Of a stretch of 64,000 bases of DNA, positions 44,504-50,175 are shown in pieces (positions within the stretch are counted from its first letter, which is position 1; every line of letters begins with the position of its first letter). Position numbers and translations under genes: made by a program. The stretch comes from an uncultured Actinomycetota bacterium (GTDB lineage: Bacteria; Actinomycetota; Actinomycetes; CAVWCF01). The notes beneath the pieces were generated by a model that saw only the letters and a program-made list of their open reading frames with translations, ran no database searches and had not been told where the DNA came from. The DNA lies in contig CAVOOM010000009.1 in NCBI GenBank assembly GCA_963697565.1, positions 70,304-134,303 of the forward strand, written 5' to 3'.

Positions 44504-45745
44504 TCAGAACACCCACGGGCACCATGGGCGCGGCTCGTGTGACATCGCCGCCGACCAGCGGGCGATCGCGGCCCGGTCGCCGTGGATCCGGCCCGCCTCG
44601 GCGTACTGCACCAGGCTGGACCCACCGAGGAAGGCCGCTCCGATGTCGGCCACGTCGCAGCGCACGTCTGGTTCGCTGGCGACGCGGACCGCCTCGCCGC
44701 CCTCCGGCCGAAGCACCAGCCGCCAGGTGCCTGCCGCGTGCCCGGTGAACCCGTCGGAGACCGCCACGACGAGGTCTGCGGGCGCCGCGTACGTCCGGGC
44801 CGCGATGGCCGCGGGCAGGTCCAGCACGCGGACCCACAGGGTGTCGGCCACGGACCGCACCACCCCGCGCACTCCCGCCATCATCGTCAGGATCGGGTCG
44901 TCGACCGGGGCCAGCCGCCACTCGACGGTGTTGGTCAGGTCGTGGCCGAGCAGCACGCGCCACACCGCGGCCCGGGATGCCGGGTCGACCGCGGCGAGCT
45001 CGCGGATCCGCACGGTCCCGGTCGGCCCGCCGGGGCCCCACTCCTGCTTGACCGCGTAGAGCGCGTACGCGCGGGCCTCGCCGTCGCGCTCGACCACCAG
45101 GGCCCGCAGCTCGCAGGCGCCGTCGCGGCGGTGCTCGGGGTCGTCGATGCGGTACGCCCAGCGGGCGTCGGTCGTCGTGGCCAGGTGGCCGGGCCGCTGC
45201 GGCCCGGTGACGGCGTCGACGGCGTCGACCGCGGCGCGGGCCTCGGCCGGGGTGGTGATCCGCGCGCGGAGCCCGGCCTCGCCCTCGACCGGCGGCAGCA
45301 GGGCTGCGTCGCCGGGCAGCTCGAGGGCTGCGCGGTGGGCGGCCACTCCGTATCCGAAGCGGCCGTAGATGGTGGGCTCGCTCGACCAGAGGACCGCCAC
45401 CGGCTCACGGTTGGCCGAAGCGATGTCGTCGAGCTGCCGCCGCATCAGCGCGCGGGCGACTCCGCGGCGGCGGTGGGTCGGCAGCACCCCGACCCAGGTG
45501 ATGCCGGCTGCGGGGACGTACCTGCCGCCAGGGACGGCCAGCCGCAGGGAGTACGCGGAGGCGATGCCGGCGGCGGCGCCGTCGAGGTAGGCGACCAGCG
45601 AGCGGTCCATCTCGAGGGTGGCCTTGTCCGCGGCCAGCCCGTCGCTCTGCCAGGTGTAGCCGAAGGCGATCTCGTCGATCCGGCGGAACTCCTCCCAGTC
45701 GCCGCCGAACGGTCTGACGTCGAGGTCCGTGCCGCTGGTGTCCAT
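44504..45745 (-). CDS. Eis-like GNAT N-acetyltransferase (GNAT + GNAT-like + SCP2-like C-terminal domain)
   Basis: ORF 44504..45781. The start is at MDTSGTDLDVRPF. The acetyl-CoA motif is VLPTHRRRGVARALM. The ~410-aa three-domain layout ends in F, as in Eis proteins. Confidence 0.75.
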   Translation of the reverse strand: MDTSGTDLDVRPFGGDWEEFRRIDEIAFGYTWQSDGLAADKATLEMDRSLVAYLDGAAAGIASAYSLRLAVPGGRYVPAAGITWVGVLPTHRRRGVARALMRRQLDDIASANREPVAVLWSSEPTIYGRFGYGVAAHRAALELPGDAALLPPVEGEAGLRARITTPAEARAAVDAVDAVTGPQRPGHLATTTDARWAYRIDDPEHRRDGACELRALVVERDGEARAYALYAVKQEWGPGGPTGTVRIRELAAVDPASRAAVWRVLLGHDLTNTVEWRLAPVDDPILTMMAGVRGVVRSVADTLWVRVLDLPAAIAARTYAAPADLVVAVSDGFTGHAAGTWRLVLRPEGGEAVRVASEPDVRCDVADIGAAFLGGSSLVQYAEAGRIHGDRAAIARWSAAMSHEPRPWCPWVF

Positions 45746-45816
45746 GCCGCCGTTATACCTGGGGCTGGCCGTGAGGGGCACGCGGTTATCGCCCAGGGGC
45801 AGGCGGGCGACGGCGG

Positions 45817-46518
45817 TCAGGAGTGCCGGAGCAGGCCGAGCACGGCGTCGCGCGCCTCGGCGCCCACCAGGGCCCCGAACGAGCCCCAGACCGGGTCGGT
45901 GGCCTCATCGAAGAGCGCGGCCAGGTGCGCCGAGTCCCGGGCGGCGAGGTCGGCCGCCTCCACCAGCGAGGCCGGCGGCTCCAGCACGCACTCGGCGAAG
46001 CGCCCGGCATACGCGCTCAGCACCTGCTCGGCCACGGGGTAGTCCTCGGGCGCCACCCGCGCCGCGACGAGCCACGGGGACGAGAGCGCACGCAGCCGCA
46101 GGGGAACGGGCAGCCCGCCGAGCGAGGGGGCGGCGGCCAGGCCGGCCCGGATCTGGTCCAGCCCGGCGTAGACCGCCTCGAACCAGTCCGGGTCCAGGGG
46201 CGCCTCGACGCGCGGGAGCAGATCGCAGCCGAACGCGAGGTCGTCATCGGCCAGGGCGAGGTCGCTGGTCAGGTGCGGGATTGGGCTGTCCGGCTCGGCG
46301 AGGGCATGCAGCATCGAGCCCTCGATGCGCTGGGAGGGCACGCTGAGCGTCACGCTCACCAGGGCTCGCACGGGGCCTCCCCGCCACACGTCCACGGCCC
46401 CGGCTGGCGTGCCGTTCGCGAGGCGCAGCACGCTCGACGACGAGACGTCGAACGACACGGGCAACAGGGCGACCAGCTGGTCGCGCAGGAGCGAGGCGTG
46501 CTCCAGAAGGGCGGTCAC
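45817..46518 (-). CDS. hypothetical protein; loose resemblance to ferredoxin-dependent bilin reductase / RCC-reductase fold (low-confidence function)
   Basis: ORF 45817..46518. Coding potential is good. The segments MLHALAEPDSPIPHLTSDLAL...AFGCDLLP, LRALSSPWLVAARV and DPVWGSFGALVG loosely parallel PcyA-family blocks. Confidence 0.5.
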   Translation of the reverse strand: MTALLEHASLLRDQLVALLPVSFDVSSSSVLRLANGTPAGAVDVWRGGPVRALVSVTLSVPSQRIEGSMLHALAEPDSPIPHLTSDLALADDDLAFGCDLLPRVEAPLDPDWFEAVYAGLDQIRAGLAAAPSLGGLPVPLRLRALSSPWLVAARVAPEDYPVAEQVLSAYAGRFAECVLEPPASLVEAADLAARDSAHLAALFDEATDPVWGSFGALVGAEARDAVLGLLRHS

Positions 46519-46578
46519 CCGGCGAACCCTAGGGCGGCGGGGCCGCCTACCCGCCTCGGCGCGCCCGGCAGGGCGTGG

Positions 46579-47523
46579 CTAGGCGGCGAGCGACCGCGCG
46601 TCGATCTCCGGCAGCCGGCTGGGGTCCATGCCGGGCAAGGGGGTCTTCCAGTCGTACCCCCAGCCGCCGTCCAGCAGGTCCTGCCGCCGGCGGCGGTAGG
46701 CCAGGGCCATCTGGTCGCTGCGGATATGGAGCTCCGCCGACAGGTCGTACGGCAGCAGCTCGGGCCGCTGGTGCTCGACGACGGCGGCGTCGTTGACGAA
46801 GATCGGCATGGTGCGCTTGACGGCGTTCTTGTCGGCCCAGGTGCCGGTGAGGAAGGTCCGCAGCACGACGAACTTGGTCAGCGTCTGGTTCTTGGCCACC
46901 GGGATGTTGGTGTCGTAGAGGCAGAGCACCCCGATCGGGATGTTCACCTTGAGCCGGATGATGTTCGGCATCATCCAGCAGGTGTTGGTGGTGACGCCGG
47001 GGCGGTCGTCGAGGTTGACGTTGCGGTTCTTGAACTTGCCCCACATCCCCTTGGAGCCCGGCGGGTAGAGCGTCACGGTCGTCTCGGCGGTGTACTCCGT
47101 CTCGATCACCGTGTGCTCGGGCACCTCGGGCCGGTTGGGGTTGCCGAACTGGCCCGCGTGGACGAACGGCGCGTGCGCGATGTCGACGCCGTTCTCCAGG
47201 ATCCGCTCCGCGCCGGCGTTCCAGAAGAACTCCCCGGTGGCGGCGTGGCCGCCGTACGCGGGGTCGTCCCACTCGGGCCAGTCGGGGATCGGCGGCATCG
47301 CGCTGGCCGGCAGGTCCGGGTCGCCGAGGAACACCCAGACGAAGCCGTACCGGTCGGTGGCCGGGAACTCGGCCTTGCCGGTTCGGGCCTTGTTCCAGGC
47401 GCGCACCCGTCCCGACGGGTCACGGTGCATGACGACGTCCTGGCCGAGGCACGGCATCTCGACCGGGCGCTTGCCGTCGACGACCTTGGAGAACTCCAGC
47501 GCGTACCAAAAGTTCTTGAACAT
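46579..47523 (-). CDS. Rieske-type non-heme iron oxygenase alpha-subunit-like protein lacking the Rieske [2Fe-2S] ligands
   Basis: ORF 46579..47523, 314 aa. The N-terminus MFKNFWYALEFS...LGQDVVMHRDPSGRVRAW is Rieske-domain-like, but it is followed by NKARTGKAEFPATDRYGFVWVF with no CxH or CxxH. The mononuclear iron motif ENGVDIAHAPFVH is intact. Confidence 0.7.
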   Translation of the reverse strand: MFKNFWYALEFSKVVDGKRPVEMPCLGQDVVMHRDPSGRVRAWNKARTGKAEFPATDRYGFVWVFLGDPDLPASAMPPIPDWPEWDDPAYGGHAATGEFFWNAGAERILENGVDIAHAPFVHAGQFGNPNRPEVPEHTVIETEYTAETTVTLYPPGSKGMWGKFKNRNVNLDDRPGVTTNTCWMMPNIIRLKVNIPIGVLCLYDTNIPVAKNQTLTKFVVLRTFLTGTWADKNAVKRTMPIFVNDAAVVEHQRPELLPYDLSAELHIRSDQMALAYRRRRQDLLDGGWGYDWKTPLPGMDPSRLPEIDARSLAA

Positions 47524-47594
47524 GCAACCAGCGTCACCCGTGGAACGGGATTCCGCATCTTGAGCCGGGTCGCGCAGGCGGCGGCAGGCGAGGC

Positions 47595-47840
47595 TCAGGC
47601 GGCCCGGCGGACGAGGTACGCGACCAGGCCGTCCAGGCTGCGGACCTCGCGGTAGTCGTCCTCGGGGATGTCGACGCCGGTGGACTCGGCCAGGGCCTCG
47701 ACCAGGCCGAGGAAGTCCATCGAGTCGAGGTCGATCTCGCTGCGCAGGTCCCCGCCGGCGTCGACCTCATCGAGGTCGGCCTCTGGGGCGATCCGGGCGA
47801 GCGCGGCGACGACGGCGGCCCTGGCTTCTTCGGTGTTCAT
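47595..47840 (-). CDS. stand-alone acyl carrier protein
   Basis: ORF 47595..47840, 81 aa. The phosphopantetheine site is EIDLDSMDFLGLVEAL. The ATG overlaps the E2 stop (ATGA). Confidence 0.8.
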   Translation of the reverse strand: MNTEEARAAVVAALARIAPEADLDEVDAGGDLRSEIDLDSMDFLGLVEALAESTGVDIPEDDYREVRSLDGLVAYLVRRAA

Positions 47841-49184
47841 AGCGCCTCCGGGTGGGTGAGCCGCGCCTCGAGCGCGGCCAGGTAGCGGCTGCCGAGCCGG
47901 CCGTCGGTGACCCGGTGGTCGGCGGCGAGGGTGGCGACGGTGACCGGCCGGACGAGGACGGCGCCGTCGACGGCGCAGGGCCGGTCGACCACGCGGCCGA
48001 AGCCGACGAGCGCCACCTGGGGCGGGTAGATGACGCCGTGGACGAGCTCGGCGCCCTGCTCGCCGAGGTTGGTGACGGTGAGGGTCGGGTCGCTCATCTC
48101 GGACCCGCGCAGGCGGCCGGCGCGGGCCCGGGAGACCAGGTCCTTGAGCGCGGCCATCAGGTCGACGAGCGCCAGGGTGTCGGCGTCGTGGATCGCGGGG
48201 GCGATCAGGCCGCCGCCGCGCAGCGCCACCGCGACCCCGAGGTGGACCTGCTCGGACCGCTGGAACCCGCTGTCGAGGTAGAACCCGTTGAGGTCCGGGA
48301 CCTCGCGCACCGCCAGCGCGGCGGCCTTGAGCAGGAGCGCGGCCGGAATGATCCGCTCGGAGGGCGGCCGCCCGGTGTTCCGCTCAGCCAGCCACTCCAT
48401 CGCCGGCCCGAGGTCGATCGACGTCTGCAGGTAGTAGTGCGGGATCTCGCGCTTCGAGCGGGCCATCAGCTGGCCGATCGCGGCGCGCATGGCCTCGGCG
48501 GGCGTGCGCTCGGCGGCGGGGCGGCCCGGGCCGCTGCAGGGCGCTCGGCCCCGGCGCCCGTGGGGCCGCGGCGGCCGCCTCGATCTCGGCGGCGCGGACC
48601 ACGCCTCCCGGCCGACCGGGGGCGACCACGGCGGGGTCCAGGCCGAGCTCGCGGGCCCGGCGGCGCGCGTACGGCGAGACGCGCGGCCGTTGCGCGGCGC
48701 GTGCGGCGGTGTCGACGTCATGCCGGGTCGGCTGGCCGTCCGGCCCGGAGCCGTGCACGGTCGCGAGGTCGACGCCGAGCTCGTGCGCGTGGTGGCGGAC
48801 GACGGGGGAGACCCGTGCCGGCGGCGGTGGGGCGGCCGTCGGGGCGGCCACTGTCGCAGTGGGGCGGGTGGGCGCGGGCTCGGGCTCAGGCTCCACCGGG
48901 GACTCGGATTCGGCCGCCGGCGCGGGAGCGGACCCGGTGAGAGGGGCCGCGCCCTCCAGGATCGTGGCCAGCGGGGTGCCGACGGGCACGGTCGTGCCGA
49001 CGGGCACGAGCAGCTCGCCGACCACCCCGTCCTGGAAGACCTCGACCTCGATGGCCGACTTGGAGGTGTCGACGACCGCCACGACCTGGCCGCGGTGCAC
49101 CGGATCCCCGGGCCCCACCAGCCACTCGATCAGCGTGCCCTCGTCCATGTCTGCGCCGAGCGAGGGCATCAGGTAGTCAGCCAC
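47837..49184 (-). pseudogene. 2-oxoacid dehydrogenase E2 (dihydrolipoamide acyltransferase): lipoyl domain, two PSBD-like segments, catalytic domain; +1 frameshift near 48540 as sequenced
   Basis: The N-terminal part is in ORF 48384..49247: [22 protein letters not shown]...VVDTSKSAIEVEV, VSPVVRHHAHELGVDL and VSPYARRRARELGLD. The C-terminal part is in ORF 47837..48721: REIPHYY...AADHRVTDG. Confidence 0.85.
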
Positions 49185-50175
49185 CGTCCAGCACCTCCCG
49201 CACCGCCGCCAGCACCCGGGGGACGCTGGGCAGGACGGCCTGCTCAAGGTGGCGGGCGTAGGGGATCGGGACCTCGGCCGAGCAGACCCGCTGCACGGGG
49301 GCGTCGAGGTCGTAGAAGGCCTGCTCCATCAGGATCGCGGAGATCTCGCCGGCGAGCGACCCGGTGCGCCAGCCCTCGTCCACGATCACCGCGCGGTGCG
49401 TGCGGGACACCGAGGCCACCAGGGTCGCGGTGTCGAGCGGTCGCAGGGTGCGCAGGTCGATCACCTCGGCGGAGACGCCGTCCGCGGCCAGGGACTCGGC
49501 CGCCTCCAACGTCAGCGGCAGGCTGCCGCCGTAGGTGATCAGCGTGACGTCGCTCCCGGCCCGCCGCACGGCCGCGCGGTCGAGGTCGACCGGCCCGGCG
49601 TCGGCGGGCAGCTCGCCCTCGACCCCGTACATCGACCCGTGCTCGAAGATGACGACCGGGTCCGGGTCCTGCAGGGCGGTCCAGAGCATGCCGCGGGCGT
49701 CGGCCAAGGTGGCCGGCTCGACGACGCGGAGCCCGGGCACGTGCGCGTACCAGTTCTCCAGGGAGTGCGAGTGCTGCGCCGCCAGCTGCCGGCCGGCCCC
49801 GGTGGTCATCCGGATGACCACCGGCACGTGGAACTGCCCGCCGCTCATGTGCAGCAGCGAGGCCGCGGTGTTGACGATCTGGTCGAGGGCGAGCAGCGAG
49901 AAGTTGACCGTCATGATCTCGACGATCGGCCGCATCCCGCCGAGCGCGGCGCCGATGCCGGCGCCGACGAAGCCGGACTCCGACAGCGGGGTGTCGCGGA
50001 TGCGCTCGGGGCCGAACTCCTCAAGCAGCCCCAGGCTGACGCCGAAGCCGCCGCCGTACGGGCCGACGTCCTCGCCCATCAGGAAGACGCGGTCGTCCCT
50101 GCGCATCGCGTCGCGGATGGCCTCGCGGATGGCCTCGCGGTACGTCATCCGGACGGTCTCAGTCAGGGCGGTCAT
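49177..50175 (-). CDS. 2-oxoacid dehydrogenase E1 component beta subunit
   Basis: ORF 49177..50175, intact. Motifs are [49 protein letters not shown] and MRPIVEIM. Confidence 0.9.

Follow-up and report, generated by a model that had tools for sequence, protein, structure and literature searches.

The defining feature of Rieske oxygenases is that electrons pass between subunits from the enzyme's own [2Fe-2S] cluster, and in these enzymes a bridging Asp joins an iron-ligand His to the cluster-ligand His of the neighbouring subunit. In the 64,000 bp stretch of uncultured Actinomycetota DNA analysed here (the window), one gene appears to encode an oxygenase of this class without its cluster, raising the questions of whether the loss is real and, if so, how the remaining iron site is supplied with electrons. 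An earlier note on this DNA had considered an assembly deletion, a dead gene, and a naturally Rieske-less oxygenase as explanations.

The gene is located on the minus strand at positions 46579–47523 (stop codon included), and is an open frame coding for a Rieske-less non-haem iron oxygenase of the VanA/PaO type, 314 aa in length and with the N-terminus MFKNFWYALEFS. The sole Pfam domain is VanA_C (PF19112; residues 101–285, E 3.2e-20), and no Pfam match to the Rieske domain PF00355 is found in the 314 aa protein. There are three cysteines overall, and residues 1–70 contain one Cys (C25) and one His (H33). The mononuclear-iron motif ENGVDIAHAPFVH (residues 110–122; 47158–47196, minus strand) is invariant in 117 aligned homologues and includes E110, N111, the bridging Asp D114, and the ligands H117 and H122. 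The carboxylate ligand of the 2-His-1-carboxylate triad is predicted from the alignment to be D245 (46789–46791, minus strand), which is invariant within the clade of Rieske-less proteins described below, and at least 90% conserved among homologues overall. These features agree with the earlier note, which had described an uninterrupted 314 aa ORF, a single Cys and a single His in the first 70 residues, and an intact 2-His region; its central claim, that the Rieske ligand segment is gone and the mononuclear-iron site kept, is confirmed by both Pfam and alignment. Compared with alpha subunits of the VanA/phthalate class, the protein lacks the N-terminal CxH...CxxH Rieske domain, has the SRPBCC-type catalytic domain with its 2-His-1-carboxylate site and bridging Asp, and shares common descent with the full-length members. 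Its 47–49% identity to 395–400 aa proteins of the Actinoplanes type spans both flanks of the deletion. The nearest sequence relatives in the PDB are SxtT/GxtA, NdmA, guaiacol demethylase, and DdmC, and residue 53 of the query aligns with SxtT residue 107, an offset of 54 that leaves about 54 N-terminal residues unaccounted for.

We considered whether a cluster could be encoded elsewhere in this frame. The stop-to-stop frame reaches 81 codons upstream, and a cluster-bearing N-terminal extension was rejected because the ACP gene, in a different frame, overlaps it and every homologue begins MFKNFWY. Substitute ligands from elsewhere in the protein, which the earlier note had recognised as fatal to its proposal, are likewise ruled out; the clade alignment contains neither an invariant Cys nor any conserved Cys or His elsewhere in the protein able to serve as a cluster ligand, and the lack of invariant Cys makes a replacement cluster unlikely.

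A search of 5.8 billion proteins yielded relatives of two kinds, as distinguished by length and domains. The long kind (376–430 aa, with Rieske and VanA_C domains; 40–49% identity) is found in Actinoplanes, Catellatospora, Streptomyces, Nocardioides, and others, and the nearest full-length homologues are therefore longer than the 350–370 aa previously expected. The short kind (307–341 aa) has VanA_C alone and is 54–97% identical to the window protein. Alignment with the closest full-length homologues, as had been suggested for sizing the gap, gives a missing stretch of 46 residues, LCVHRGAALSGG...CPYHGWEY...KIPAQPxRPVP, which contains both CxH and CxxH and falls between K45 and A46. All of the short proteins in the alignment lack the identical 46 residues, and they also lack a conserved C-terminal tail (VIPSPARRxNPELARAWVHK...) that is present in all close full-length relatives. 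The healed junction, N44-K45/A46 (47386–47394, minus strand), was placed using three alignments against full-length homologues. The segment NKARTGKAEF was initially thought to replace the ligand region, but NK and ARTGKAEF are homologous to the ..SD and KARVDSYP of full-length proteins (..ALSD / KARVDSYP..), and the event is therefore a clean excision and not a replacement. Where full-length proteins have S and K, the Rieske-less clade has a conserved N44 and R47.

The deletion is present in independent JGI, ENA, NCBI, and Logan assemblies, with short-read contigs among them. The carriers include the congeneric genome G001 (98% identity), P0001 (97%), G002 from another genus of the same order (64%), and others at 54–57%. 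A maximum likelihood tree unites the 12 Rieske-less sequences in a single clade (SH-aLRT 100), with one state change and several deep sub-branches, indicating a single ancient deletion event; the orthologues thus do share the deletion, a question the earlier note had raised, and they do so as a monophyletic clade down to 54% identity. The clade groups with full-length actinobacterial clades, apart from more distant full-length sequences. Its branches are long (0.7–0.9 substitutions per site), and the N-terminal remnant evolves faster than the remainder of the protein. In a scan of 185,579 species, each represented by one genome, the short form was found in six (the window's own and five others), all of them uncultured Actinomycetota MAGs; the other carriers are Microflora Danica bins, 'Micrococcales Ww176', and 'Actinomycetes OTE_58'. 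Among 401 genomes sampled from the class, 16 have any close homologue of the oxygenase and three have the short form, all three belonging to the window's order. The gene order oxygenase-(Fpg/partner-GNAT)-RpiB-PepN-DUF5130 is conserved between the window, G002, and three further contigs.

There is virtually no prospect that the missing segment is an assembly or consensus artefact in which about 138 nt were lost from a normal Rieske oxygenase gene. The source genome is a long-read-type MAG with frequent frameshifts, as might favour such an error, but at least 12 sequences, produced by different projects and assemblers and drawn from all four of the sources named above, show the identical in-frame gap, the residues at the junction are conserved, and the full-length paralogue in the same genome was assembled with its Rieske segment. 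It is also very improbable that the gene is dead or dying, a pseudogene that is still open by chance. The defining cofactor site is gone, the downstream partner gene is frameshifted in G001, and dN/dS for deep pairwise comparisons is high (0.45–1.0); however, the deep values were judged unreliable, being inflated by synonymous saturation at a GC3 of about 0.9, and only close pairs were used. Relative to G001, dN/dS is 0.108 (20.5 synonymous and 7.5 non-synonymous differences), and it is 0.28–0.49 among the L001, L004, and L005 sequences. The ORF is intact in all assemblies over a divergence reaching 54% identity, and the MAG frameshifts are at different positions in the window's genome (G000) and in G001, and so resemble assembly noise. 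The clade alignment has 126 invariant columns, including K3–F11 and all of the iron-site residues (E110, N111, D114, H117, H122, and D245), and the 20-residue stretch ENGxDxAHxPFVHAGQFGNP is nearly fixed; M1–F11 is nearly invariant both across the clade and in full-length homologues. The deletion of the cluster segment is real, ancient, single, and under selection. Of the explanations considered at the outset, a naturally Rieske-less oxygenase is supported, and the shared deletion, the kept iron ligands, and purifying selection effectively exclude an assembly deletion and a dead gene.

The AlphaFold2 model of the 314 aa protein, built from an alignment of 117 sequences, has a mean pLDDT of 86.4 and a pTM of 0.86. 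The earlier note had proposed asking whether the N-terminal remnant still folds, and residues 1–66 (47326–47523, minus strand) are confidently predicted to form a six-stranded beta domain, the basal beta-domain of the former Rieske domain, with strands at 5–11, 21–25, 28–34, 40–44, 55–58, and 61–66. Block pLDDT across these residues is 94–97, dropping to 83 at residues 41–50 around the junction. By our reading of the alignment against the known Rieske fold, the excised part corresponds to the cluster-binding subdomain, leaving the basal beta-domain in place. Foldseek matches of the model are to GxtA/SxtT, guaiacol demethylase, NdmA, and DdmC (E 1e-17 to 1e-12, TM ~0.7), with a Foldseek probability of 1.00 for GxtA/SxtT, NdmA, and DdmC. 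Systematic differences between the clade and full-length proteins are confined to four regions: the junction (N44, K45, and R47–G49); the site following GD (71–73), where two residues are inserted and acidic residues are lost; a linker motif that has become fixed, WPEWDDPxYGGH (82–93), together with Q125 and E250; and the tail.

Directly downstream of the oxygenase is a gene (45817–46518, minus strand) encoding a 233 aa partner protein, whose AlphaFold2 model (pLDDT 91.5) and Foldseek matches indicate the fold of red chlorophyll catabolite (RCC) reductase (RCCR) and the ferredoxin-dependent bilin reductases (FDBR). The best Foldseek match is Arabidopsis RCCR (3agb; E 2.9e-10, TM 0.72), with further RCCR structures (2zxk and 3aga; E ~1e-10) among the top matches, and HY2 (phytochromobilin synthase), PebA, PcyA, PebB, and PebS following after RCCR. 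By these matches the partner is a ferredoxin-dependent bilin-reductase-fold protein. No Pfam family scores above threshold for the partner, the best being RCC_reductase (PF06405) at E 0.05, and a PDB profile search gave a weak RCCR match (E 0.025) that was lost with a larger alignment, which returned HY2 alone at E 0.68. The partner family has more than 1,000 members, all annotated as 'hypothetical' and with no Pfam model. Directly after the full-length paralogue, in the same genome, comes a homologue of the partner gene (E 3e-19), and the oxygenase-partner pairing is also seen in G002, on the P0002 contig (with a 4-nt overlap), and at most full-length loci examined. An RCCR/FDBR-fold gene is therefore found beside the oxygenase, as in the chlorophyll-catabolite module of pheophorbide a oxygenase (PAO) and RCCR, and the PaO C-terminal domain (PF08417) is absent both from the window protein, by Pfam, and from the precomputed domains of its homologues.

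A promoter and terminator scan of 45700–47900 found none. The oxygenase-partner pair is followed by a gene for an Eis-like, three-domain GNAT protein (Acetyltransf_9/17 and SCP2_2; 44504–45781, minus strand), which is also present in G002 (L045 11264–12493). A link to the upstream E1alpha/E1beta/E2/ACP operon was rejected, because G002 has the order oxygenase-partner-GNAT-RpiB-PepN without the operon. The E2 acyltransferase of this operon (47837–49247, minus strand) is present as two overlapping ORFs, one with the lipoyl and E3-binding domains (48384–49247) and the other with the catalytic domain (47837–48721), probably another assembly frameshift.

A full-length paralogue adjoining an RCCR-fold gene is present in all six carrier genomes (G000, G001, G002, G401, G402, and G403), such that a second, Rieske-bearing paralogous polypeptide is encoded in the same genome, as in split CAO (chlorophyllide a oxygenase). 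The paralogue is about 45% identical to the window protein and is encoded, together with a partner gene of its own, on a different contig; it keeps its own iron site, and any dependence of the two polypeptides would therefore be one-way. In G000 its cluster is on contig 6 at ~413.5–419.5 kb (L047 3588–9467, minus strand), and the same order is seen in G401 (L046): an RCC_reductase protein (Pfam E 8.4e-10), an alpha/beta hydrolase of the PETase/DLH type (GHSAGG), the Rieske+VanA_C oxygenase, the RCCR-fold protein (254 aa), an unknown protein (287 aa), and an SDR. The set has the look of a catabolic operon of the chlorophyll/pheophorbide type in uncultured Actinomycetota.

Both congeneric MAGs have a frameshift in the full-length paralogue, but at different positions, after ..RIPAQP in G000 (L014/L018; G000:C6 ~416.5–417.5 kb) and within ..GGWLTPDE.. 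in G001 (L016/L017; G001:C1 ~81.7–82.4 kb), and the 233 aa partner is likewise split in G001 (L009). The differing positions fit long-read consensus noise better than a shared pseudogenising mutation. At L048 1859–2323, the Rieske-less relative that branches most basally (P0121; 282 aa, JGI 3300012043) has an IclR regulator beside it, and an SDR gene similar to the one in the full-length cluster overlaps its end.

How, then, might the iron site be used? On balance, we lean towards the 314 aa protein being an active catalytic subunit that receives its electrons in trans. That the iron triad and D114 are conserved argues for continued use of the iron site and for its continued coupling to a donor, and this conservation, together with the co-occurrence of the paralogue and the precedents of NdmC and CAO, favours such a reading. 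We propose that a pair of genes for an oxygenase and an RCC-reductase-like protein, from a cluster resembling those for chlorophyll or tetrapyrrole catabolism, would have been duplicated to give rise to the Rieske-less gene, which, in an ancestor common to a few uncultured Actinomycetota, lost precisely its [2Fe-2S]-binding subdomain, along with the C-terminal tail. The gene product retains the catalytic domain with its 2-His-1-Asp Fe(II) site and cluster-coupling Asp, as well as the basal beta-domain. O2 and substrate, which we infer to be of the tetrapyrrole type, would be activated by the mononuclear iron in the manner usual for Rieske oxygenases, with two electrons delivered by the cluster of another polypeptide. 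By analogy with heterodimeric CAO, our tentative choice of donor is the Rieske domain of the full-length paralogue within a mixed alpha3 trimer. Otherwise, and this we think unlikely, a soluble or stand-alone Rieske ferredoxin could dock in the vacated interface space and act as donor in the way that NdmC is served by the Rieske domain of NdmD.

The genomic data bear on these donors in different ways. No electron-donor gene is adjacent to the oxygenase, its window neighbours being ACP, the RCCR-fold protein, and GNAT. There is no NdmD-like Rieske-reductase in its own genome (an 88%-complete assembly), and no GST neighbour. The five Rieske matches in this genome are the paralogue, a SufD-adjacent protein, a small ferredoxin, a secreted protein, and QcrA, none being a reductase fusion; a stand-alone Rieske ferredoxin is present on G000 contig 6 at ~25.1 kb. 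Against a role in trans for the paralogue, there is no complementary degeneration of the CAO kind, since the iron site of the paralogue is intact; the paralogue is only about 45% identical, with a contig and partner gene of its own; and its co-occurrence may simply reflect duplication history, covering only 2–3 independent lineages. The long clade branches and the fast-evolving N-terminal remnant also count against a trans-fed subunit.

The main alternative, which we consider somewhat doubtful, is that the 314 aa protein needs no external electrons, acting as a substrate-driven oxidase, a peroxide user, a Lewis-acid enzyme, or a non-catalytic, tetrapyrrole-binding partner. As an oxidase, it could use its 2-His-1-Asp iron on an electron-rich substrate of the tetrapyrrole or bilin type, with the reducing equivalents coming from the substrate itself; as a non-catalytic protein, it may be a substrate-binding or channelling partner of the RCCR-like protein. 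The absence of a donor gene nearby and the pairing with an RCCR-fold protein, itself tetrapyrrole-binding, are in keeping with this, as are the long branches of the clade, the loss of the C-terminal tail and of conserved acidic residues (E73 and E106) of full-length proteins, and the new clade-conserved residues W85, P88, Y90-G91, Q125, and E250, which suggest an altered function. However, D114 and the whole of the surrounding interface stretch remain invariant, and the one role known for these is coupling to a Rieske cluster. Moreover, all known Rieske-less relatives (NdmC and the CAO Fe subunit) use a Rieske cluster in trans (PMC4408171; bioRxiv 10.1101/2025.02.10.637544). We think it quite unlikely that the mononuclear iron is reduced without any Rieske cluster, either directly by a ferredoxin at the vacated interface or by way of a bound tetrapyrrole substrate complexed with the RCCR-like partner, which is cofactor-less and ferredoxin-dependent. 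If true, cluster-free reduction would be a previously undescribed drive for enzymes of this class, and the uncultured Actinomycetota concerned might also have a new tetrapyrrole-cleaving reaction.

The clade is a compact natural test case. Natural cluster-less members of the class are rare, and the known examples, NdmC and split CAO, show the catalytic module re-wired to other donors; the proteins described here can be used to ask whether mixed trimers or free ferredoxins feed the iron site, and what structural part the cluster-binding subdomain and the C-terminal tail play. They also bear on the tetrapyrrole-type chemistry of these uncultured Actinomycetota, and serve as a warning for annotation, as labels of 'aromatic ring-hydroxylating dioxygenase subunit alpha' conceal cluster-less proteins. 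In the literature searched we found no account of the Rieske-less clade, and matches to 'Rieske-less' concerned bc1-complex topics only. Given NdmC and split CAO, a Rieske-less oxygenase is not a new concept, and cluster-less relatives recur in metagenomes; this clade stands apart in that its loss is independent and took place in a different subfamily, and in having an RCCR-fold partner and a full-length paralogue that always coexists with it, without NdmD or NdmE.

A close parallel in architecture is NdmC, of the NdmCDE N7-demethylase of Pseudomonas putida CBB5, which like the window protein is a VanA-class catalytic subunit that has kept its iron site and lost its cluster. In place of a Rieske cluster of its own, NdmC relies on the additional Rieske domain in NdmD, which the GST-like NdmE holds in position (PMC4408171). 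The window oxygenase, in contrast, adjoins an RCCR-fold gene, with neither NdmD nor a GST-like NdmE encoded alongside, and belongs to a different subfamily (profile E ~1e-31, as against 1e-80 to 1e-97 for full-length actinobacterial relatives); its cluster loss is independent of that of NdmC. An NdmCDE-like locus, L051 3499–7745 (ENA ERZ27298222, k141_913280), has two tandem Rieske-less VanA_C genes (303 and 275 aa; P0174 is one of these) beside genes for a GST and a 596 aa Rieske+Fer2 reductase, and these NdmC-like oxygenases share with the window protein the arrangement of an N-terminal remnant followed by a catalytic domain. An exhaustive profile search recovered at least 10 other clusters, at 50% identity, of cluster-less relatives with a full N-terminus. 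In one relative, P0208 (537 aa), an N-terminal Rieske-less oxygenase is fused to a complete C-terminal Rieske domain (CPHR...CPFHG) in permuted order, a Rosetta-stone hint. Another cluster-less relative, P0167 (711 aa), has a eukaryote-like N-terminal extension. The structural relatives SxtT/GxtA, NdmA, DdmC, and the GcoA-type guaiacol demethylase, all alpha3 Rieske monooxygenases, have the same catalytic fold and iron motif but, unlike the window protein, all have the CxH...CxxH cluster-binding subdomain.

The model for a mixed oligomer is the heterodimeric CAO, which is tetrapyrrole-related, and in which a cluster-less iron-site polypeptide needs a Rieske-bearing paralogue. In the CAO of Micromonas and other Mamiellophyceae, one gene encodes the Rieske part and a second the iron-site part, and neither product is active without the other (Kunugi et al. 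2013 as cited in bioRxiv 10.1101/2025.02.10.637544; PMC9615114). That system differs in being eukaryotic and plastid-located, and in having complementary halves that each lack one site, whereas the paralogue in the window's genome retains both sites and has its own gene cluster. Plant PAO and RCCR offer a further likeness, namely an oxygenase of the same broad Rieske class adjoining an RCCR-fold protein, although plant PAO has both a Rieske cluster and the PaO domain (PF08417) and the window protein has neither, matching VanA_C instead. It is the full-length paralogue cluster, with its RCC_reductase protein, alpha/beta hydrolase, and SDR, that resembles the plant chlorophyllase/PPH-PAO-RCCR logic, and it fits a 2026 preprint that predicts prokaryotic structural homologues of PAO and RCCR, with Actinomycetota prominent among them (bioRxiv 10.64898/2026.03.19.712979).
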